In this document: in pieces, positions 56,601 through 63,585 of the stretch
How positions within the stretch are numbered: position 1 is the stretch's first letter
Layout of the letters: each line of letters starts with the position of its first letter
Sequence record: OZ035741.1
Reading direction: 5' to 3' (one strand)
DNA from: Felixounavirus LF82P2
Length of the DNA stretch: 64,000 nucleotides
The notes under the pieces: model-generated
The model's database searches: none
Told to the model about the DNA's origin: nothing
Seen by the model: the letters and a program-made list of their open reading frames with translations, nothing else
Position numbers and translations under genes: made by a program

Positions 56601-58016
56601 ATGAGCGAATTATTTAAACATGCGCACCTTCATGCAGGTCGAACTGAAAATGGTGCTGTAAACCATACTTCATCAATGTCTGCTCTTGTAGACTTTTACA
56701 AAGCTGCTGGTTCAAGCCGTAGCAATGTAGAAATCTTACCAGACCTGTTCTACAAAGCTTTGCGTGAGGATGTTGATGTTGCAGTTCGTATTTTACTGCA
56801 TATGCGAGATGTACGAGAAGGTATGGGTGAGCGTAAAGCCTTCAGAACTGTTTTGCTTCAAGCAATTGAAGATAAAGTTTTAGAGCCTACACAGGTTCTT
56901 CGCATTATGGATAAGATTGCAGAACTTGGTCGTTTTGATGACTTCAAAATCTTCGTAGGTACTCGTTTCGAGACAGATGCCTTCAAACATTTAGAAGCAG
57001 CATTACTAGACCCTGCAACAGCAGGTTTGGCAGCTAAGTGGTTACCACGAGTAAAACCACGTCACAAACAGTTTGTAAAACGTTTCTGCAAGTTTGCAAA
57101 CTTGAGTGAGAAGGAGTATCGCACACTGTTATCTGCACTGTCTGATACGGTTGAGCAAAAAATCTCTGCTAATGAGTTTGGTAAGATTGACTACAGTAAG
57201 ATTCCTTCACTTGCTGCTGCACGTTACCAAAAACTCTTTAACCGTAAAGATGGAGAACGCTACAAAGCTTACATTGAGTCCTTATCAAAGGGCGAGACTA
57301 AGATTAATGCTGGTGCTGTTTATCCATACGATGTGATTAAATCTGTTAAGTATGGTAATGCAGATGTTGCTAATGAGCAGTGGAAAGCACTACCAAACTG
57401 GATGGCAGAGGGTGAAAACATTCTATGTATGTCTGATGTTTCAAGTTCAATGTCTTGGGTGAATTTTGGTTCAATTACTGCTCTTGATATTGGTGTTTCA
57501 CTTGCATTGTATGTAGCAGAACGTAATACAGGTTGCTTTAAGAATGAGTTGATGGTTTATTCAACAAACCCTCACTTCATTGAACTGAGTGGTGATTTAC
57601 GAAACCGTCATCGTCAGGTGATGCGACACGTTGAATATGGCTCAACTAACTTACAAGCAGCTTTTGACCGTATTCTTGAGACAGGTAAAAGAAACAACTT
57701 GACTCAGAAAGATATGCCAAGTAAGCTTATCATCTTCTCCGATATGGAGTTCAATCAGGTTGATGGAGCTAACGGTCGTACAAACTTTGAAGCAATTCAG
57801 AGTAAGTACAAAAAAGCTGGATATGAGATGCCACAACTGGTATTCTGGTACTTAGCAAACCGTAATGGTACTTGCGAAGTATCTGTTAAGGATAACGGTG
57901 TAGCAATGGTATCAGGGTTCTCTCCAGCCACTTTAAAAGCTCTGCTTGGTGGTGAGAAGTTTGACCCAATCAGTGTAATGCTCAAAGCAGTAATGATTGA
58001 CCGTTATATCTGGTAA
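56601..58016 (+). CDS. von Willebrand factor A (vWA) domain protein
   Basis: 471 aa; MIDAS-like DVSSSMS (DxSxS) near residue 280 followed by Rossmann-like pattern; helical N-terminal domain. Confidence 0.4.
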   Translation: MSELFKHAHLHAGRTENGAVNHTSSMSALVDFYKAAGSSRSNVEILPDLFYKALREDVDVAVRILLHMRDVREGMGERKAFRTVLLQAIEDKVLEPTQVLRIMDKIAELGRFDDFKIFVGTRFETDAFKHLEAALLDPATAGLAAKWLPRVKPRHKQFVKRFCKFANLSEKEYRTLLSALSDTVEQKISANEFGKIDYSKIPSLAAARYQKLFNRKDGERYKAYIESLSKGETKINAGAVYPYDVIKSVKYGNADVANEQWKALPNWMAEGENILCMSDVSSSMSWVNFGSITALDIGVSLALYVAERNTGCFKNELMVYSTNPHFIELSGDLRNRHRQVMRHVEYGSTNLQAAFDRILETGKRNNLTQKDMPSKLIIFSDMEFNQVDGANGRTNFEAIQSKYKKAGYEMPQLVFWYLANRNGTCEVSVKDNGVAMVSGFSPATLKALLGGEKFDPISVMLKAVMIDRYIW

Positions 58017-58171: not shown

Positions 58172-58248
58172 AAAAGTTTATCTCTGTTTAGCTCAGCTTG
58201 GTAGAGCGTTCCGTTTGGGGCGGTAAGGCCGGAGGTTCAAGTCCTCCA
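58172..58248 (+). tRNA. tRNA-Pro (anticodon TGG)
   Basis: 7 bp acceptor stem, T-loop GGTTCAAGTCC, anticodon loop TTTGGGG, encoded CCA. Confidence 0.7.
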
Positions 58249-58265
58249 ACAGAGACCAAATTAAT

Positions 58266-58343
58266 GTTCCAGTAGACAAAATGGTATAGTCACCACTCTT
58301 TCAAAGTGGACATCTGAGGGTTCAAATCCCTTCTGGAACGCCA
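58266..58343 (+). tRNA. tRNA-Glu (anticodon TTC)
   Basis: Acceptor GTTCCAG/CTGGAAC, anticodon stem CCACT/AGTGG, loop CTTTCAA. Confidence 0.65.
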
Positions 58344-58434
58344 GTTTTGACAGAAGACCAAATACAGCAAACTTAATCTTATTCATCTGAAGGTAAATCG
58401 GACAAAGAAGAGATTTGGTCTGGTCATTAAGAAT

Positions 58435-58511
58435 TGCGGGTATAGAGAAAGGGCGTCTCACATGTCTCATTAGCATGGTATCGGCAGGTTCGACTCCTGC
58501 ACCCGCCTCCA
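58435..58511 (+). tRNA. tRNA-Met (anticodon CAT), atypical (T at position 37, mismatch at pair 1-72)
   Basis: Anticodon stem CATGT/GCATG, loop CTCATTA, T-loop GGTTCGACTCC. Confidence 0.5.
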
Positions 58512-58594
58512 AATTTACAGAAGACCGTTTACAGCAACATTTATTAAATTTTTAGCGGAAAAATTGAAAGATACGGTCTGGTAATACTAAACAT

Positions 58595-58671
58595 GGTTAG
58601 GAAGCACATAAGGTATGTGCGGTCGCCTGTTAAGCGAATGGCACAGGGTTCGAATCCCTGACTAACCGCCA
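58595..58671 (+). tRNA. tRNA-Asn (anticodon GTT)
   Basis: Anticodon loop CTGTTAA; T-loop GGGTTCGAATCCC; CCA encoded. Confidence 0.65.
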
Positions 58672-58740
58672 AATTTAGGAGAGAAGCGATTGCTCACCGA
58701 TTTGTAAGGTGCAAGTCCTTAGCCTGAATAGAAATTAAAT

Positions 58741-58828
58741 GTGTCGTTATCCCGTAGATGGTAGCGGTGGGGACTGTAAATCCCTTGTCATTGAGACTCG
58801 GTAGGTTCGACTCCTACACGGCACACCA
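58741..58828 (+). tRNA. tRNA-Tyr (anticodon GTA), long variable arm
   Basis: Acceptor GTGTCGT/ACGGCAC, anticodon stem GGGGA/TCCCT loop CTGTAAA, 88 nt. Confidence 0.7.
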
Positions 58829-58833
58829 ATAAA

Positions 58834-58911
58834 GGTTATGTAGTTTAATTTGGTTAAAATACTCCCCTGTCACGGGAGATGATGAGGGTTCAAATCCCTT
58901 CGTAACCGCCA
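58834..58911 (+). tRNA. tRNA-Asp (anticodon GTC)
   Basis: Acceptor GGTTATG/CGTAACC, anticodon stem CTCCC/GGGAG loop CTGTCAC. Confidence 0.7.
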
Positions 58912-59081
58912 ATTTTGAGAGGGCTATTTAGCCCCTCCCTTAAAGGGTTCTTACGAGTATCCTTTAAAGGAGCAGAAGACCAAATACAGCAAGTTACTTA
59001 AAATTTCAAGCCAATTTAATTTTGAAAAATTTAAAACTTGGTCTGGCTCAACAAATTTACAGAAGACCGTTTACAGCAAAA

Positions 59082-59178
59082 CTTAAACAATCTATTTCTC
59101 GGTAAAGAAAAGGCGAAGGTTCGATTCCTTCACTCGGCAGATGTCGAGTTGGTGTAATGGTAGCACTTAAGATGATAA
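59082..59178 (+). pseudogene. tRNA halves in permuted order (3' half upstream of 5' half); possible circularly permuted tRNA or rearranged pseudogene
   Basis: 3' part 59082-59139 (CTTAA, variable-arm hairpin, T-arm GAAGG-TTCGATT-CCTTC, acceptor ACTCGGC) then 5' part 59143-59178 (acceptor GTCGAGT, D-arm, TTAAG, loop ATGATAA). Confidence 0.35.
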
Positions 59179-59339
59179 ACAACGGTCTGGTAATTATCTT
59201 TGTAGATAAGTTATTAAGCTTACCTGTGAGTATGCGACCACAAAGGGTGAAAGGGTAAATTCTAGATTTAAACCCAAAAAGGCACATCGCTACAGACCTT
59301 AAGCAAGTCTGGGTAGCTTATCTACAAAGATAATTTAAT

Positions 59340-59415
59340 GGAAGTGTAGCAGAATGGTGATGCGGCAGACTTTTAATCTGACAGGCGATGGGTTCGAATC
59401 CCTCCACTTCTACCA
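59340..59415 (+). tRNA. tRNA-Lys (anticodon TTT)
   Basis: Acceptor GGAAGTG/CACTTCT, anticodon loop CTTTTAA, T-loop GGGTTCGAATCCC. Confidence 0.65.
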
Positions 59416-59419
59416 ATAT

Positions 59420-59496
59420 GGTTCAGTCGCAGATAAGGTAATGCAAGGGTCTCATAAGCCCTATGAATGTGGGTTCGAATCCCATCTGAACCTCCA
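59420..59496 (+). tRNA. tRNA-Met (anticodon CAT), GGG/CCC anticodon stem (initiator-like feature)
   Basis: Anticodon arm AGGGT-CTCATAA-GCCCT; acceptor GGTTCAG/CTGAACC fully paired. Confidence 0.65.
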
Positions 59497-59498
59497 AT

Positions 59499-59573
59499 TG
59501 TGGGTTAGCATAAATGGTAATGCAAACGGCTGATAACCGTTAGAAGAGGGTTCGATACCCTCACCTACAACCA
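59499..59573 (+). tRNA. tRNA-Ile (anticodon GAT)
   Basis: Anticodon arm AACGG-CTGATAA-CCGTT; T-loop GGGTTCGATACCC. Confidence 0.7.
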
Positions 59574-59591
59574 AGTTCAATAAAGTTGTTG

Positions 59592-59620
59592 ACATTGAGA
59601 TGTGACTACTTTATAGTAAC
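59592..59620 (+). promoter_or_regulatory. sigma70-like promoter inside tRNA cluster (TTGACA-17-TATAGT)
   Basis: Consensus -35 and good -10 in spacer after tRNA-Ile. Confidence 0.45.
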
Positions 59621-59821
59621 CTTAGTTTTCGTTGCGTAGCGTCTATTTTGCAAATTTAAAATAAATGCAAACGACAATGTTTTTCTGGCAGTAGCTTGAT
59701 AGGCTAAACACCAGTGAGGTCTTCCAATCCCTCATCAAAGAATTTGGCGTACTCGCCCACGGTATGATTAATAAGGTGGGCATCTTTAAGGGCTTTCTAA
59801 GAGAGTCTTTAAAGATAATTA

Positions 59822-59903
59822 CGGGGCGTATCTCAGCGGTCTTCTAAACCGCCGTTAACCGAGTAAGTGGAGTATGCGGGTTCGAGTCCTGCCGCCTCGA
59901 CCA
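59822..59903 (+). tRNA. atypical tRNA-like gene (possible Arg, anticodon TCT), non-canonical arm arrangement
   Basis: Acceptor CGGGGCG/CGCCTCG plus T-arm GCGGG-TTCGAGT-CCTGC and CCA; perfect hairpin GCGGT-CTTCTAA-ACCGC sits where the D-arm should be. Confidence 0.4.
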
Positions 59904-60046
59904 ATTTAGTTAGCAGATTACTTAGACGACCTAAGCGGGTCTTCCTGTAGGGAGGTGGTCTGTATCTCATGTTTTCCAGAACATGTAAATAATCTGAGAA
60001 GGGGCTTTACAGTGTTGAGATAATACGGTAAGCTTCGAATTATAGT

Positions 60047-60129
60047 ATGGGACGATGTTAAGACTCTAAGGCATGAGCAACGGCCTCCAAAACCGTTTCA
60101 AAGGGGTTCAACTCCTCCGTCCCATGCCA
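60047..60129 (+). tRNA. tRNA-Trp (anticodon CCA), enlarged D region (83 nt)
   Basis: Perfect acceptor ATGGGAC/GTCCCAT, anticodon arm ACGGC-CTCCAAA-ACCGT, T-loop GGGGTTCAACTCC. Confidence 0.5.
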
Positions 60130-60142
60130 AAGTCTTATTAGG

Positions 60143-60230
60143 GGTAGGTAGCGGCTAATGGCAGCCAAACAGTCTTGAAAACTGTTGCCACTGTAGAGAT
60201 ACGGTGAGGGTTCGACTCCTTTACTTACCG
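60143..60230 (+). tRNA. tRNA-Ser (anticodon TGA), long variable arm, CCA not encoded
   Basis: Anticodon arm ACAGT-CTTGAAA-ACTGT; long variable arm; T-loop GGGTTCGACTCC. Confidence 0.65.
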
Positions 60231-60488
60231 CCTAATAAGATTTTTAAAGCCAAGCTTCATTCGGATGTTGCTTTGGTATCCCTCGTGTATTGTCGTACAC
60301 ACTGATAAAACACCTAGTAGGTGTCACGGAGAAGAGATAATATCAAGCTCTCCAAAGGTTCTAGTCACCGGATTAAACAAGACTATGCAAAGACCTTTTA
60401 GGTCTTTTTAGAGGGCTTCTAAGGTTATTACAGCTTGTTGTGGAACCTTGTTGCTTAGGTTCTTAGAAGTTCTCTAAAAAGATTTAAT

Positions 60489-60566
60489 GGGAGATTGACG
60501 GTAATTGGTAAACCTATCTCGCTTAGAACGAGATGTTTGAGGGTTCGAATCCCTTGTCTCCTACCA
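60489..60566 (+). tRNA. tRNA-Leu (anticodon TAG) with short variable loop
   Basis: Anticodon arm TCTCG-CTTAGAA-CGAGA perfect; discriminator A; T-loop GGGTTCGAATCCC. Confidence 0.55.
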
Positions 60567-60573
60567 AATTAAT

Positions 60574-60649
60574 GCAGGTGTAGCAAAATGGTTATGCGGC
60601 TGACTCTTAATCAGTAAGACGATGGGTTCAATTCCCTCCACCTGTACCA
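60574..60649 (+). tRNA. tRNA-Lys (anticodon CTT)
   Basis: Scaffold similar to tRNA-Lys(TTT); anticodon arm GCTGA-CTCTTAA-TCAGT. Confidence 0.55.
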
Positions 60650-60655
60650 AACAAT

Positions 60656-60731
60656 GGGGTCATAGTTTATATGGTTAAAATTCGAGTTTTGCAAACTTGG
60701 GAACTGAGTTCAATTCTCAGTGACTCCACCA
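60656..60731 (+). tRNA. tRNA-Ala (anticodon TGC)
   Basis: Acceptor GGGGTCA/TGACTCC with G3-T70 wobble; anticodon loop TTTGCAA. Confidence 0.65.
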
Positions 60732-60737
60732 ATTAGT

Positions 60738-60812
60738 GCATCCATAGTTTAAACGGGAAAATTACAGTCTTCCAAACTGAGGTTGAGGGTTCGATTCCCT
60801 CTGGATGCTCCA
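60738..60812 (+). tRNA. tRNA-Gly (anticodon TCC)
   Basis: Acceptor GCATCCA/TGGATGC; anticodon arm ACAGT-CTTCCAA-ACTGA. Confidence 0.65.
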
Positions 60813-60826
60813 AATTAAGGTGTGAT

Positions 60827-61240
60827 ATGAAAATATGCAGTACTTGCAGAATACCAAAAGATGAAAGCTTATTCCATAAGAATAAGAACAAGAAAGACGG
60901 TCTTCAAAGTCAATGCAAAGATTGTGCAAGACTCCGTGATGCAAAGAGTTATCAAGCAAATGATAAAAGGAAAGAGGCTATTAAAAGCACTCGTAACTTC
61001 AAGAGAGAGCATAACAAGACTCTAGCTAGAAGGTACAAAGCTTTATGCAAATGTCATATATGTGGTGAGAAAGAACCAGTTGCACTGGATTTACACCATA
61101 CAGACCCTTCCCAGAAAGATTTGAATCCTGCATCACTTTATTCATACTCCACAAAAAGATTAAAAGATGAAATCAGAAAGTGCATTGTCTTGTGCGCTAA
61201 CTGTCACAGAAAAGTACATGCTGGTATCATAAAAGTTTAA
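60827..61240 (+). CDS. HNH endonuclease embedded in tRNA cluster
   Basis: Cys-rich N-terminus and C-terminal DLHHTD..CANCHRKVH HNH motif. Confidence 0.6.
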   Translation: MKICSTCRIPKDESLFHKNKNKKDGLQSQCKDCARLRDAKSYQANDKRKEAIKSTRNFKREHNKTLARRYKALCKCHICGEKEPVALDLHHTDPSQKDLNPASLYSYSTKRLKDEIRKCIVLCANCHRKVHAGIIKV

Positions 61241-61241
61241 T

Positions 61242-61318
61242 GCTGCTTTCGTATAATTGGCTATTACACATCCCTTGTAAGGATGGAAATGCAGGTTCGA
61301 GTCCTGTGAGCAGCACCA
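61242..61318 (+). tRNA. tRNA-Thr (anticodon TGT)
   Basis: Anticodon arm CATCC-CTTGTAA-GGATG; T-loop GGTTCGAGTCC. Confidence 0.7.
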
Positions 61319-61413
61319 ATTCAGAGGTCAAGTGAAAGACCGCTGGTGTCAACTGAAGACCGTAACAAATTCCACGGAGTTGAGTTAGCGGCACAACTTC
61401 AGACCTCTTTCAT

Positions 61414-61488
61414 ACTCGCTTAGTTTATATGGTAAAACATCACCCTTACAAGATGAAGAAAAAGGTTCAAGTCCTTTAGTGAGTACCA
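61414..61488 (+). tRNA. tRNA-Val (anticodon TAC), one mismatch in anticodon stem
   Basis: Acceptor ACTCGCT/AGTGAGT; anticodon arm TCACC-CTTACAA-GATGA (C-A mismatch). Confidence 0.5.
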
Positions 61489-61489
61489 T

Positions 61490-61567
61490 GTTCCAGTATC
61501 CCAATTGGCAGAGGATGCAAGCTCAAACCTTGTACTAGTGACGGTTCGAATCCGTCTTGGAACACCA
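61490..61567 (+). tRNA. tRNA-Leu (anticodon CAA) with short variable loop
   Basis: Anticodon arm GCAAG-CTCAAAC-CTTGT; discriminator A; T-loop GGTTCGAATCC. Confidence 0.55.
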
Positions 61568-61572
61568 ATTTT

Positions 61573-61648
61573 GCAGGATTAGTTCAAATGGATAGAGCAA
61601 CAGTCTACGAAGCTGTTAATAGGGGTTCGAATCCCTTATCCTGCGCCA
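61573..61648 (+). tRNA. tRNA-Arg (anticodon ACG)
   Basis: Acceptor GCAGGAT/ATCCTGC; anticodon arm ACAGT-CTACGAA-GCTGT. Confidence 0.7.
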
Positions 61649-61667
61649 ATTTAAAGAGGCTATTTAG

Positions 61668-62225
61668 ATGAGATATTTGAAGTATGCTTCATGGATTTTC
61701 TTAGCTTTGTTAGAACCATTTGCAGCAATCTTAGCAGTTATCTTAGCACCTTTTGTAGTTCCATTTTACAGTGAGAAGAAAGGACACTTACCTTTCGGAT
61801 TTAGATGGATGGAAACTTATGACAACCCAATTGATGGTGATGAAGGTCACGTTAAAAGATGGGCTAATATTAGATGGATTGGTAAGCTTGGTGTCTATAT
61901 GCAGAGAGTCGGTTGGCTCTGGAGAAACAAAGCTTATAACTTCTCTTACCATGTGTTAGGAAGAGATGTAAAAGATGTTACTAAGTGGAAAGGTAATATC
62001 AACGTAAGTTCTAACCCTGAAGATAATCAGACAGGTTATCTCCTAATGTGGAACAGCAATGCTTGGGGATTATTCGCTTTTATACCATCAATTAAAATCT
62101 TTGGTAAACAGTTCTACTGGAGAATTTATATTGGGTGGAAGCTAAAAAGTGTTGTCCCAGAAGAAAGAGCATTCTCAAGGGAAAGAGTTATGTTGGCATT
62201 CTTTATTCATCCACTAAGAAATTAA
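61668..62225 (+). CDS. hypothetical membrane protein embedded in tRNA cluster
   Basis: 185 aa; hydrophobic N-terminal segment, Trp-rich. Confidence 0.4.
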   Translation: MRYLKYASWIFLALLEPFAAILAVILAPFVVPFYSEKKGHLPFGFRWMETYDNPIDGDEGHVKRWANIRWIGKLGVYMQRVGWLWRNKAYNFSYHVLGRDVKDVTKWKGNINVSSNPEDNQTGYLLMWNSNAWGLFAFIPSIKIFGKQFYWRIYIGWKLKSVVPEERAFSRERVMLAFFIHPLRN

Positions 62226-62233
62226 AGATTTAA

Positions 62234-62309
62234 AGGGGATTAGTTTACAAGGTTAAAACCTCGGTCTTTGAAATCGAAGAAGTTGGTTCAATTCCAACAT
62301 CCCCCGCCA
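62234..62309 (+). tRNA. tRNA-Gln (anticodon TTG)
   Basis: Anticodon arm TCGGT-CTTTGAA-ATCGA; T-loop GGTTCAATTCC; pair 1-72 mismatched. Confidence 0.6.
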
Positions 62310-62311
62310 AT

Positions 62312-62390
62312 GCTCCATTACTCCAATTGGCAGAGAGGCCAGACTTAAAATCTGTGTTATGTATCGGTTCGAATCCGATATGGAGTACCA
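62312..62390 (+). tRNA. tRNA-Leu (anticodon TAA) with intermediate-length variable region
   Basis: Anticodon loop CTTAAAA; discriminator A; D region similar to tRNA at 61490. Confidence 0.5.
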
Positions 62391-62395
62391 AATTT

Positions 62396-62471
62396 AGCGG
62401 TATAGCATAACTGGCAATGCAACAGTCTCTGAAGCTGTCTTATTAAGGTTCAAATCCTTATGCCGCTGCCA
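62396..62471 (+). tRNA. tRNA-Gln (anticodon CTG)
   Basis: Anticodon arm ACAGT-CTCTGAA-GCTGT; T-loop GGTTCAAATCC. Confidence 0.55.
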
Positions 62472-62502
62472 CTTCTAAGGGTTCTTACGAGAGTCCTTAA
62501 AT

Positions 62503-62578
62503 GTGGCCTTATCATAAATGGTAATGACCCATGCTGTGAACATGGTCTATACGGGTTCAAATCCCGTAGGTCACCCCA
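62503..62578 (+). tRNA. tRNA-His (anticodon GTG)
   Basis: Anticodon arm CCATG-CTGTGAA-CATGG; discriminator C. Confidence 0.7.
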
Positions 62579-62583
62579 ATTTA

Positions 62584-62660
62584 TAGTCCAAGTAGCTTAT
62601 ATGGTTAAAGCGCGTGTCTGAAAAACATGAGAAGAGGGTTCAAATCCCACTGGACTACCA
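62584..62660 (+). tRNA. tRNA-Phe (anticodon GAA)
   Basis: Acceptor TAGTCCA/TGGACTA; anticodon loop CTGAAAA. Confidence 0.6.
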
Positions 62661-62676
62661 ATTTCAAAGGTGCTTA

Positions 62677-63411
62677 ATGAAAGAGATGACAGAACAAGGT
62701 AAGGAGATTTTTAATCTCTTAAAAACCGGTAAAGGGTTTTCTAACCCACTTATTACTGGTGCAGCAGTTCTCGGTGGAACCGTAGCTGCTTCTACATCAC
62801 TTGTAAGCTCTATTAGTTCTGTAACAGACCCTACAATGCAGGAGAAACTTGTTGCTGCTGGACTTACAACAGTCCTTCTAAACAGCTTTACAACAAGCCT
62901 TACAAGCACTACAGCAACTACTAAGACCCTGACAGACTACGGTCAAAAATCTATTGATGAGTTTTCATCACGTATGCAGGTAGCAAAGGGATATTCCAAT
63001 GTTATGGGTGCAGCAGGAGAACAAGTTGGTTGTACACCGTTCAGTGGTATTATGGGTGTTGCTACAGAATATGGTCAAAAAGCTATTGATACGATTAACA
63101 GTACACTAGAGAGTGTTAACAATGTATTAAGTGACTTACAAGACGCTATTGACAAGGGTCTTGATACTGTTTCTGATTTAGCTAACCAAGCTGTCAGTAA
63201 GATTAATGAAGGTATCTCAAAGATTACAGCTTATGCAGATGAAGTTGTGCAGATGATTGAAGAAGAATCTGCCCTTATTGCAGAGTACCTTAAAACGAAT
63301 ATCAATGGGTTCTTAGCAGGTATCTTACCAGACTGGTTTGATGATGCCTGTAAAACTGGTGTAATTGACACTATTGCAACACCAGAAATGAAGAACGCAT
63401 TACAGAAATAA
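62677..63411 (+). CDS. hypothetical protein embedded in tRNA cluster
   Basis: Track ORF 62614-63411 overlaps tRNA-Phe; start moved to ATG 62677 after AAAGG RBS; Thr/Ser-rich then helical. Confidence 0.45.
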   Translation: MKEMTEQGKEIFNLLKTGKGFSNPLITGAAVLGGTVAASTSLVSSISSVTDPTMQEKLVAAGLTTVLLNSFTTSLTSTTATTKTLTDYGQKSIDEFSSRMQVAKGYSNVMGAAGEQVGCTPFSGIMGVATEYGQKAIDTINSTLESVNNVLSDLQDAIDKGLDTVSDLANQAVSKINEGISKITAYADEVVQMIEEESALIAEYLKTNINGFLAGILPDWFDDACKTGVIDTIATPEMKNALQK

Positions 63412-63412
63412 T

Positions 63413-63505
63413 GGAAGATTAACCCTAAAAGGTAAGGGAGCAGTTTGCTAAACTGACAGTAGCTGAGAAATCGGTGTACCAGTTCAAGTCTGGTATCTTC
63501 CTCCA
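63413..63505 (+). tRNA. tRNA-Ser (anticodon GCT), long variable arm
   Basis: Perfect acceptor GGAAGAT/ATCTTCC; anticodon loop TTGCTAA; 93 nt. Confidence 0.65.
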
Positions 63506-63509
63506 ATTT

Positions 63510-63585
63510 GAATCCGTGACAGAAATGGCTATGTGCCTGTCTGCAAAACAGGTTTATAAGGGTTCGAGTCCCTTCGGATTCTCCA
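63510..63585 (+). tRNA. tRNA-Cys (anticodon GCA)
   Basis: Acceptor GAATCCG/CGGATTC; anticodon arm CCTGT-CTGCAAA-ACAGG. Confidence 0.7.

Follow-up and report, generated by a model that had tools for sequence, protein, structure and literature searches.

Known bacterial transfer RNAs (tRNAs) are all canonical cloverleaves, and natural tRNAs that lack an arm have been described only from mitochondria, according to reviews and a 2024 study (PMC11551756, PMC7609411); phages are absent from a 2020 review on naturally non-canonical tRNAs (PMC7609411). Edelmann et al. reported that histidyl-tRNA synthetase (HisRS), EF-Tu and the ribosome of Escherichia coli accept a D-armless tRNA (PMC11551756). Here, we analyzed two genes on the plus strand of a 64,000-nucleotide stretch of DNA from Felixounavirus LF82P2 (sequence record OZ035741.1; hereafter, the window), located at positions 59822–59903 (anticodon UCU, the Arg candidate) and 60047–60129 (anticodon CCA, the Trp candidate). 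A first-pass annotation, made from the letters alone, had described both as tRNA-like genes with non-canonical arm arrangements that might be functional atypical tRNAs, tRNA-like regulatory RNAs or pseudogenes. Our analysis identified both as real, selected and structurally non-canonical tRNA genes, with rewired cores of a kind that in nature has so far been described only for mitochondria. Both probably serve the host ribosome as phage-supplied elongator tRNAs, despite cores unlike that of the standard cloverleaf. Neither a D-armless or rearranged phage tRNA nor the sequence strings of the Arg candidate family were found in the literature, a search that left subscription journals uncovered and thus does not prove their absence.

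Two Decoding Gaps in the Phage tRNA Array

The region of the window around both genes was 100% identical to Felixounavirus LF82P1, and many phages of Escherichia, Salmonella, Shigella and Citrobacter that resemble Felix O1 were 93–99% identical to it. ARAGORN identified an array of 25 tRNA genes on the plus strand, from 58182 to 63585, which represents 19 amino acids and contains neither a tRNA-Trp nor a reader of the AGR codons (R, purine); the sole tRNA-Arg called has anticodon ACG and reads CGN. With default settings, ARAGORN called neither the Arg nor the Trp candidate, and for the former it gave no match at -ps90 and still no tRNA call at -ps80. The Arg candidate reached 31.7 bits with the Rfam tRNA model RF00005 (cut-off 29), in an alignment where the D arm was deleted (4 nucleotides vs. 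15) and 20 nucleotides were inserted in the variable region. The Trp candidate did not match the Rfam tRNA model and scored 23 bits with the tRNA-Sec model (cut-off 47). No tool that we ran provided a canonical fold which the first-pass annotation could have missed. In some GenBank records the Arg candidate is labeled as 'tRNA', 'tRNA-OTHER', 'pseudo' or, once, 'tRNA-Leu'; it has been seen before by annotation pipelines and never interpreted.

Structure and Conservation of the Arg Candidate

Both genes lie on the plus strand at the positions given by the first-pass annotation, whose description of them was accurate to the base. The Arg candidate is 82 nucleotides long and, in 5′-to-3′ order, consists of the acceptor 5′ strand CGGGGCG (59822–59828), the linker U8-A9-U10 (59829–59831), the D-stem 5′ strand CUC (positions 11–13 of the gene, 59832–59834), A14, the anticodon arm GCGGU-CUUCUAA-ACCGC (59836–59852, with UCU at 59843–59845), an 8-nucleotide bulge CGUUAACC (59853–59860), the D-stem 3′ strand GAG (positions 40–42, 59861–59863), a 12-nucleotide D-loop-like joiner UAAGUGGAGUAU (59864–59875) with the motif AAnUGGA, the T arm GCGGG-UUCGAGU-CCUGC (59876–59892) and the acceptor 3′ strand CGCCUCG (59893–59899), which is followed by the discriminator A73 (59900) and an encoded CCA (59901–59903). 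As had been noted from the letters, the acceptor stem (7/7 pairs), the T arm and the CCA are all intact, and the only convincing anticodon-type hairpin lies in the place of the D arm, starting 7 nucleotides past the acceptor stem and ending 23 nucleotides before the T arm. The T arm has the 5-bp stem and the 7-nucleotide loop with UUCRA that define this arm in tRNAs, and the anticodon arm is fully standard (5-bp stem, 7-nucleotide loop, U33 and a purine at 37). The hairpin that in a cloverleaf occupies positions 10–25, 2 nucleotides past the acceptor stem, is missing.

Pattern scans of IMG/VR and of the GenBank phage collection, together with one metagenome scan, recovered a family of 99 distinct 79-nucleotide variants from 169 loci, whose lowest identity to the window copy was 57%. 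By BLAST, the gene was found in 262 GenBank phage records that include members of Felixounavirus, Justusliebigvirus and Mydovirus, 121Q/PBECO4 jumbo phages, Klebsiella phages of about 145 kb and one Vibrio phage. A survey of non-phage genomes (one per species, for 185,579 bacterial and archaeal species) detected only two true copies, both on contigs of metagenome-assembled genomes, and the family is essentially phage-borne. Other tRNA genes were present within 1.5 kb in 106 of 146 family loci; ARAGORN missed 145 of the 146 family members.

The stems of the family are maintained by compensatory change. In an alignment of 81 variants, 98.4% of the 1620 stem cells were paired and 18 of the 20 pairs had changed on both sides, values that were reached by none of 500 shuffles, and pairing dropped to 34–48% when partners were slid by 1–3 columns. 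Double-sided changes affected 7/7 pairs of the acceptor stem (98.6% of cells paired), 5/5 pairs of the anticodon stem and 4/5 pairs of the T stem (98.8% of cells paired). Each conserved single-stranded motif (joiner, anticodon loop, 5′ linker and bulge), and likewise the D-stem, was left free in at least one scan. The motifs U8-A9-U10-C11, C-R-U-Y-A-A in the bulge and UAAnYGGAGUAU in the joiner were still conserved when unconstrained: U8-A9-U10 was invariant in 94/94 variants, as were C32, U34, A36 and A37 of the bulge, the last two positions of which vary, and a scan whose pattern left the joiner motif GAGUAAnnGGAGUAU free returned 27 variants, all of which carried it unchanged. The anticodon loop, also left free, was CUUCUAA in 94, CUUCUAC in 4 and UUCCUAA in 1 of the 99 variants, corresponding to the anticodons UCU (98/99) and CCU (1/99), which are the two AGR-box anticodons. 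CCA was encoded in 74/99 variants.

The first scans had fixed CUC and GAG, and therefore a small hairpin placed by RNAalifold within the 23-nucleotide segment was still possible at that point. When positions 11–13, 38–42 and 46–49 were freed in later scans, 11–13 and 40–42 were complementary in 99/99 variants through nine different combinations (CUC/GAG in 69, CAC/GUG in 13, CGC/GCG in 5, CAU/AUG in 4, CAG/CUG in 3, CUG/CAG in 2, and CUU/AAG, CGG/CCG and CGU/ACG in 1 each). The mini-hairpin of RNAalifold and RNAfold (38–40 with 47–49) showed no double-sided change and accumulated 22 broken cells. These two results together establish that a D-stem exists and that its strands flank the anticodon arm, a feature that the first-pass annotation had missed. 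Another pairing that was considered, of 11–13 with 49–51, was likewise incompatible. In the nine variants with G at position 39, position 14 was a pyrimidine, which suggests a fourth D-stem pair (14–39) in some family members.

Allelic Replacement and Codon Demand

In the phages Moogle, Michonne, EcSzw-2 and REP7, and in the Pectobacterium phages Arno162 and Wc4-1, the slot of the array that holds the Arg candidate is occupied by a canonical tRNA-Arg(UCU) of 75–77 nucleotides. REP7 is also a Felixounavirus, and its flanks and those of the window match up to a few bases from the ends of the gene; at this slot, the two genomes differ by a clean cassette exchange between two forms of one tRNA. 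Among GenBank phage records, 262 carried the non-canonical form vs. 136 with the REP7-type canonical allele. VpaE1 and one of its derivatives, ev108 (KM657822.1/LR597658.1), possess the canonical tRNA-Arg(UCU), and another derivative, VpaE1_ev035 (LR699048.1), the non-canonical allele, which suggests that co-infecting Felix O1-like phages swap the two alleles by recombination.

AGA makes up 28% of the Arg codons in 40 long open reading frames (ORFs) of the window (11.2 per 1000 codons), and AGA and AGG together account for 38%. In the Felix O1 genome paper, Whichard et al. described AGA as over-represented and a tRNA for this codon as expected and not found (PMC3185647). Its tRNA table, in the part that covers both loci, has no entry for Arg-UCU or Trp (PMC3185647).

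The joiner is similar to the D-loops found in canonical tRNA-Arg(UCU) genes of phages (AACUGGACA and AAUUGGAUA), and its conserved GGA (G48, G49 and A50, at 59869–59871) resembles their G18-G19-A20, with no D-loop hairpin at that place. The identity set of E. coli arginyl-tRNA synthetase (ArgRS) comprises C35, U36 or G36, A20, and A or G at position 73. C35 and U36 were invariant in the family, and the discriminator was a purine in 94/99 variants. Because the scaffold occurs with Arg anticodons only, replaces a canonical allele, resides in an AGA-rich genome and in most variants carries a purine discriminator, we consider it most likely a working tRNA-Arg. It is most likely the phage's AGA decoder, tRNA-Arg(UCU), and probably reads AGG as well.

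The Trp Candidate

The Trp candidate (60047–60129, 83 nucleotides, CCA encoded) has an acceptor stem with 7/7 pairs (AUGGGAC/GUCCCAU) followed by G73. As proposed from the letters, its D region is long, since 26 nucleotides separate the acceptor stem from the anticodon stem (normally 19–22). The excess is located in the connector between the acceptor and D stems, which had been overlooked, and not in the D-loop. This connector, GAUGUUAAG (9 nucleotides, 60054–60062) plus an A (up to 60063), was identical in 8/8 variants, including Pectobacterium copies with 76% identity. A connector of 2 nucleotides is the norm in tRNAs; here the D hairpin begins 10 nucleotides past the acceptor stem and has 3 bp only, which sets it apart from the D arm of a cloverleaf. 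The D arm (60064–60077) is formed by the stem CUC/GAG and the loop UAAGGCAU, and the stem changed to CAC/GUG (U-A to A-U) in 3/8 variants, with 100% pairing. The anticodon arm AACGG-CCUCCAAAA-CCGUU (60079–60097, with CCA at 60087–60089) changed on both sides at 4/5 pairs, in the versions AACGG/CCGUU, GUAAG/CUUAC, GACGG/CCGUU and GUAGG/CCUAC. Its loop can be drawn with 9 nucleotides, or with 7 nucleotides closed by a C.A or C.C mismatch; U33 and A37 are present. The T arm AGGGG-UUCAACU-CCUCC (60102–60118) has four pairs, an A49.C65 mismatch and the loop UUCAACU; one G-C pair became U-A in Moogle and the other three pairs were invariant. In the acceptor stem, U2-A71 was replaced by C2-G71.

BLAST located this gene in 235 phage records, nearly all of which bear the names of enterobacterial phages of the Felix O1 type. 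The copies that had diverged most (76% identity) came from Pectobacterium phages, and the gene was annotated as a tRNA in 0 of the 60 records listed. The six copies that were fetched all belong to Ounavirinae. Loose patterns produced mostly chance matches, and a geometry filter left, among the matches listed, Ounavirinae copies only. The eight distinct variants derive from Felixounavirus, Mooglevirus, Suspvirus and Pectobacterium phages. On an explicit cloverleaf, 152/152 cells were paired and eight pairs had changed on both sides, which none of 500 shuffles reached; no double-sided change appeared in any slid control of this alignment.

The identity set of E. coli tryptophanyl-tRNA synthetase (TrpRS) consists of the CCA anticodon, G73 and A1-U72. 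The anticodon and G73 were present in 8/8 variants, and A1-U72 or G1.U72 in 7/8, the Pectobacterium copy having G1-C72. The Trp candidate is the only Trp decoder of the array, it most probably decodes UGG, and its addition brings the tRNA set to 20 amino acids.

Both candidates contain GUUAA, 2 nucleotides, a 3-nucleotide D-stem strand and UAA...GG, with GUUAA at 59854–59858 and 60057–60061; the Arg candidate reads C-GUUAA-CC-GAG-UAAGUGG and the Trp candidate GAU-GUUAA-GA-CUC-UAAGG. This likeness may represent a shared structural module, a shared ligand site or a coincidence.

Neighboring Elements

A transfer-messenger RNA (tmRNA)-like module lies directly upstream of the Arg candidate (59589–59821, plus strand). 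It comprises a near-consensus promoter, the strongest sigma-70-like promoter of the region (TTGACA at 59589–59594, a 17-nucleotide spacer and TATAGT at 59612–59617), a conserved 5′ box AGUUUUCGU (59624–59632), a resume codon GCA at 59667 that opens the tag ANDNVFLAVA (59667–59696) with the stop codons UGA and UAG (59697–59702), and a 13-bp hairpin (59782–59816). The module was found in at least 149 phage loci, in Felixounavirus, Ackermannviridae (Det7), swi2-like phages of about 47 kb and Cyrano-like contigs of about 100–114 kb, with 11 tag variants that all conform to AN[DE]xx[FY]LAVA and some of which show synonymous codon changes. ARAGORN made no credible call of a complete tmRNA at any of the tag-module loci, and no convincing chargeable tRNA-like domain was found in the swi2-, Det7- and Cyrano-type loci. 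Downstream of the tag module, some relatives have long helices with T-arm-like hairpins inside them; in the window, this part is reduced to a plain hairpin. The module is independent of the Arg candidate. A match of the Rfam tmRNA_permuted model at 59516–59699 (31.4 bits, cut-off 47) and a 'permuted tmRNA' called by ARAGORN with relaxed settings both make use of the T arm of tRNA-Ile; as a 5′ acceptor strand that would match is absent downstream, we judged them to be composite artefacts. Since relaxed ARAGORN and tmRNA_permuted reproduced such a composite in the window (59499–59702), the ARAGORN 'ssrA tmRNA' published for Felix O1 and Moogle (PMC4319497, PMC4392139) is probably a composite of the tag (59667–59702) and the T arm of the neighboring tRNA-Ile.

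A tRNA mimic of permuted order is located at about 59058–59195 on the plus strand, in the gap between tRNA-Asp and tRNA-Lys. It contains a V hairpin, a T arm (59115–59131), a closed 7-bp acceptor-like hairpin (59132–59138 with 59143–59149) and a D arm (59152–59166), all inside a 7-bp closing helix (59066–59072 with about 59186–59192). Its acceptor-like stem exists in three compensatory versions in Moogle- and Susp-viruses (ACUCGGC/GUCGAGU, ACCCUUC/GAAGGGU and ACACGUU/GGCGUGU), and the loop of this hairpin has 2 to 8 nucleotides. This architecture matches that of the bacterial YrlA Y RNAs of Chen et al. (2014) (PMC4201824), and no Rfam match was found at the mimic at E values up to 1. Upstream of this YrlA-like module, a direct repeat CAGAAGACC-(3–4 nucleotides)-UACAGCAA is present at 58972–58992 and 59060–59080 (plus strand); both copies are invariant in a five-genus alignment, and the second one supplies the 5′ strand of the closing helix.

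Immediately upstream of the array, an ORF of 471 amino acids (56601–58016, plus strand) matches the Pfam domains DUF2828 and DUF7788 and PHROG 850 ('RNA-binding protein'). No relative in PDB was found by sequence, and a single-sequence AlphaFold model had a mean predicted local distance difference test score of 44.5, too poor for a fold search. This protein could be the partner, putatively Ro60-like, of the YrlA-like RNA.

Within the array, two genes called by ARAGORN and drawn by it as ordinary cloverleaves never reach the Rfam tRNA threshold. In the tRNA-Met(CAU) (58435–58511, plus strand), positions 1 and 72 are unpaired, and the 88-nucleotide tRNA-Tyr(GUA) (58741–58828, plus strand) has a weak D-stem. 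The latter appears as 'Pseudo (Tyr)' in the Felix O1 genome paper (PMC3185647).

Proposed Fold and Alternative Explanations

In the fold that we propose for the Arg candidate, the 3-bp D-stem (11–13/40–42) encloses the anticodon arm rather than a D-loop. The molecule is then a three-way junction of the acceptor arm, the T arm and a composite anticodon limb, the latter made of the D-stem, a 1x8 internal loop and the anticodon stem, and a 12-nucleotide single strand (UAAnUGGAGUAU) links this limb to the T arm. Stacking of the D-stem on the anticodon stem could restore the normal distance from anticodon to elbow, the conserved GG of the joiner might dock on the T loop like G18/G19, and the A that follows might substitute for A20, the ArgRS identity base. 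The Trp candidate has a normal topology except for its 9-nucleotide connector, its 3-bp D-stem and the widened or mismatched closure of its anticodon loop. Both RNAs would be transcribed within the array, processed by RNase P, charged by the host ArgRS and TrpRS and used on the ribosome.

That both genes encode structured RNAs under selection is close to certain. Their interpretation as decaying pseudogenes or annotation noise is very unlikely. Both are rejected by ARAGORN, their Rfam scores are marginal or absent, and some records label the Arg candidate as pseudo or OTHER, with no tRNA label for the Trp candidate in the records listed. However, many compensatory substitutions across divergent phages, down to 57% identity, preserve every stem, the core motifs outside the stems hardly vary between unrelated phage families and environmental contigs, and an invariant anticodon loop beside stems that turn over would be unexpected in a decaying gene. 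On these grounds, we reject the pseudogene option of the first-pass annotation. Even less credible is that the Arg candidate constitutes the alanine-accepting domain of a phage tmRNA that works with the tag frame ANDNVFLAVA 120–250 nucleotides upstream. The window copy has G3.U70, A73 and CCA, the Rfam tmRNA model and relaxed ARAGORN both recognize the resume sequence and tag, and an 'ssrA' called by ARAGORN has been announced for the genomes of Felix O1 and Moogle (PMC4319497, PMC4392139). The variation of the family and the independent distribution of the module rule this assignment out: G3.U70 is present in 10/99 family members only, the conserved arm with an Arg anticodon is absent from tmRNA tRNA-like domains, the gene occurs without the tag module in PD06, WPEC5 and Mydo, the tag module occurs without the gene in Det7, swi2 and Cyrano, and a canonical tRNA-Arg follows the tag module in REP7 and Moogle.

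A weightier alternative, although still improbable, is that both RNAs are tRNA mimics that do not decode. They might, for example, be regulatory RNAs, or act as decoys or sponges for a host factor that recognizes tRNA-Arg(UCU) or tRNA-Trp, such as a synthetase, a modification enzyme or an anticodon nuclease. The array does hold other tRNA-related RNAs that do not decode, namely the YrlA-like mimic and the tmRNA-like module, and RNAs with such non-canonical cores might work poorly on the ribosome and still offer their anticodon loop and acceptor end as bait. Several further points limit the reading of both RNAs as working tRNAs. The Arg candidate has no D-loop hairpin to present A20 to ArgRS, a canonical UCU tRNA-Arg was present as well in 2 of 146 family loci (in the stretch fetched), so that strict one-for-one replacement is not universal, and the diversity of the 99 variants is a lower bound because they were gathered with motif-anchored patterns, which may miss divergent members, possibly with other anticodons. 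The Trp candidate has G rather than U at position 8, and its A49.C65 mismatch and its 9-nucleotide or mismatched anticodon loop could each reduce activity. Stability is another concern, as Edelmann et al. found that PNPase-dependent decay restricted a D-armless tRNA in E. coli (PMC11551756). On the other side, a decoy would not be expected to replace the sole AGA reader at the same locus of an AGA-rich genome, and the whole complement of features that matter in translation is conserved (the 7/5 acceptor/T helix, encoded CCA, purine discriminator, U33, A37 and the T loop UUCRA). Moreover, the Trp candidate completes the tRNA set for 20 amino acids.

We favor working tRNAs. The array lacks readers for Trp and AGR codons, and these are exactly the gaps that the two candidates fill. 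Functional atypical tRNAs, one of the options of the first-pass annotation, is the best supported one, given the invariant anticodon loops, the replacement of a canonical tRNA-Arg(UCU) by the Arg candidate and the heavy use of AGA. We infer with good confidence that both RNAs are charged and used on ribosomes.

For the origin of the rewired core we have a more tentative proposal, which we regard as possible and rather doubtful: the rewiring could be an adaptation by which the AGA decoder, and perhaps the Trp decoder, works on the host ribosome and yet escapes a factor that recognizes the canonical D arm and elbow. This factor could be a tRNA-targeting defense nuclease, a host decay or quality-control pathway, or a phage enzyme that depletes host tRNAs. 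If this proposal were true, these would be the first natural non-cloverleaf elongator tRNAs of bacterial cytosolic translation, maintained by an arms race between phage and host and passed horizontally from one phage family to other, unrelated ones.

At least 262 sequenced phages carry the Arg family, which is also conserved in the environment, in about 100 distinct variants. Among the carriers are classic phages of E. coli and Salmonella that are easy to grow (Felix O1 relatives, rV5-like phages and 121Q/PBECO4). If both RNAs are charged and decode, bacterial translation would naturally use a non-cloverleaf adaptor, the 'missing' AGA tRNA of the Felix O1 genome paper would be explained, and phage tRNAs would be systematically under-counted by tRNA finders. 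In that case, the two genes would also offer compact natural scaffolds for structural work and orthogonal-tRNA engineering, and pairs of canonical and rewired alleles in near-isogenic phages would make the reason for rewiring directly testable.

Comparison With Known tRNAs

The tRNA-like domain of tmRNA shares with the Arg candidate the acceptor/T minihelix, the CCA and, in the window copy only, G3.U70. tmRNA domains have no anticodon arm and require G3.U70, whereas the Arg family has an Arg anticodon arm and mostly lacks this pair. The nearest described case to the Trp candidate is that of the acidobacterial allo-tRNA-like sequences with an extra loop between the acceptor and D stems (PMC5389517, PMC7609411). 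Allo-tRNAs are characterized by an 8/4 or 9/3 acceptor/T helix, a long variable arm and serine identity (PMC5389517, PMC7609411), and their extra-loop variants have 8/4 helices and are not chargeable by E. coli enzymes. In contrast, the Trp candidate has a 7/5 helix with one mismatch, a variable loop of 4–5 nucleotides, Trp identity elements and an invariant 9-nucleotide connector. Neither candidate has the 8/4, 9/3 or 9/4 helix and long variable arm of allo-tRNAs or tRNA-Sec, as both are of the 7/5 type.

The canonical tRNA-Arg(UCU), as in E. coli argU, the T4 tRNA-Arg and the REP7/Moogle allele, has in common with the Arg candidate the loop C-U-UCU-A-A, the 7-bp acceptor stem, the 5-bp T arm with UUCGA, a purine discriminator, an encoded CCA and, for the REP7/Moogle allele, the same array locus. 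Likeness extends to the letters of the D-stem, (U)CUC/GAG(U), and to the D-loop-like AAnUGGA motif. In the Arg candidate, however, the D-stem strands flank the anticodon arm, the D-loop-like sequence is single-stranded on the 3′ side of the stem, there is neither a nucleotide-26 junction nor a variable loop in the usual place, and the length is 82 instead of 75–77 nucleotides.

The D-armless tRNA-Ser(AGY) of metazoan mitochondria and the synthetic mini HisT resemble the Arg candidate in that no D hairpin stands between the acceptor and anticodon stems and the molecule is a three-way junction (PMC7609411, PMC9427863, PMC11551756). Those RNAs have no D-stem and about 62 nucleotides, whereas the Arg family keeps a covarying D-stem, in a new topology, and 20 additional conserved nucleotides, and its gene is longer than that of a standard tRNA; the absence of a D-stem and the short linker that define the mitochondrial type are thus not found here. 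Unlike the mitochondrial D-armless tRNAs, the Arg family is phage-encoded and retains both a GG and a canonical T loop, from which a normal elbow could arise.

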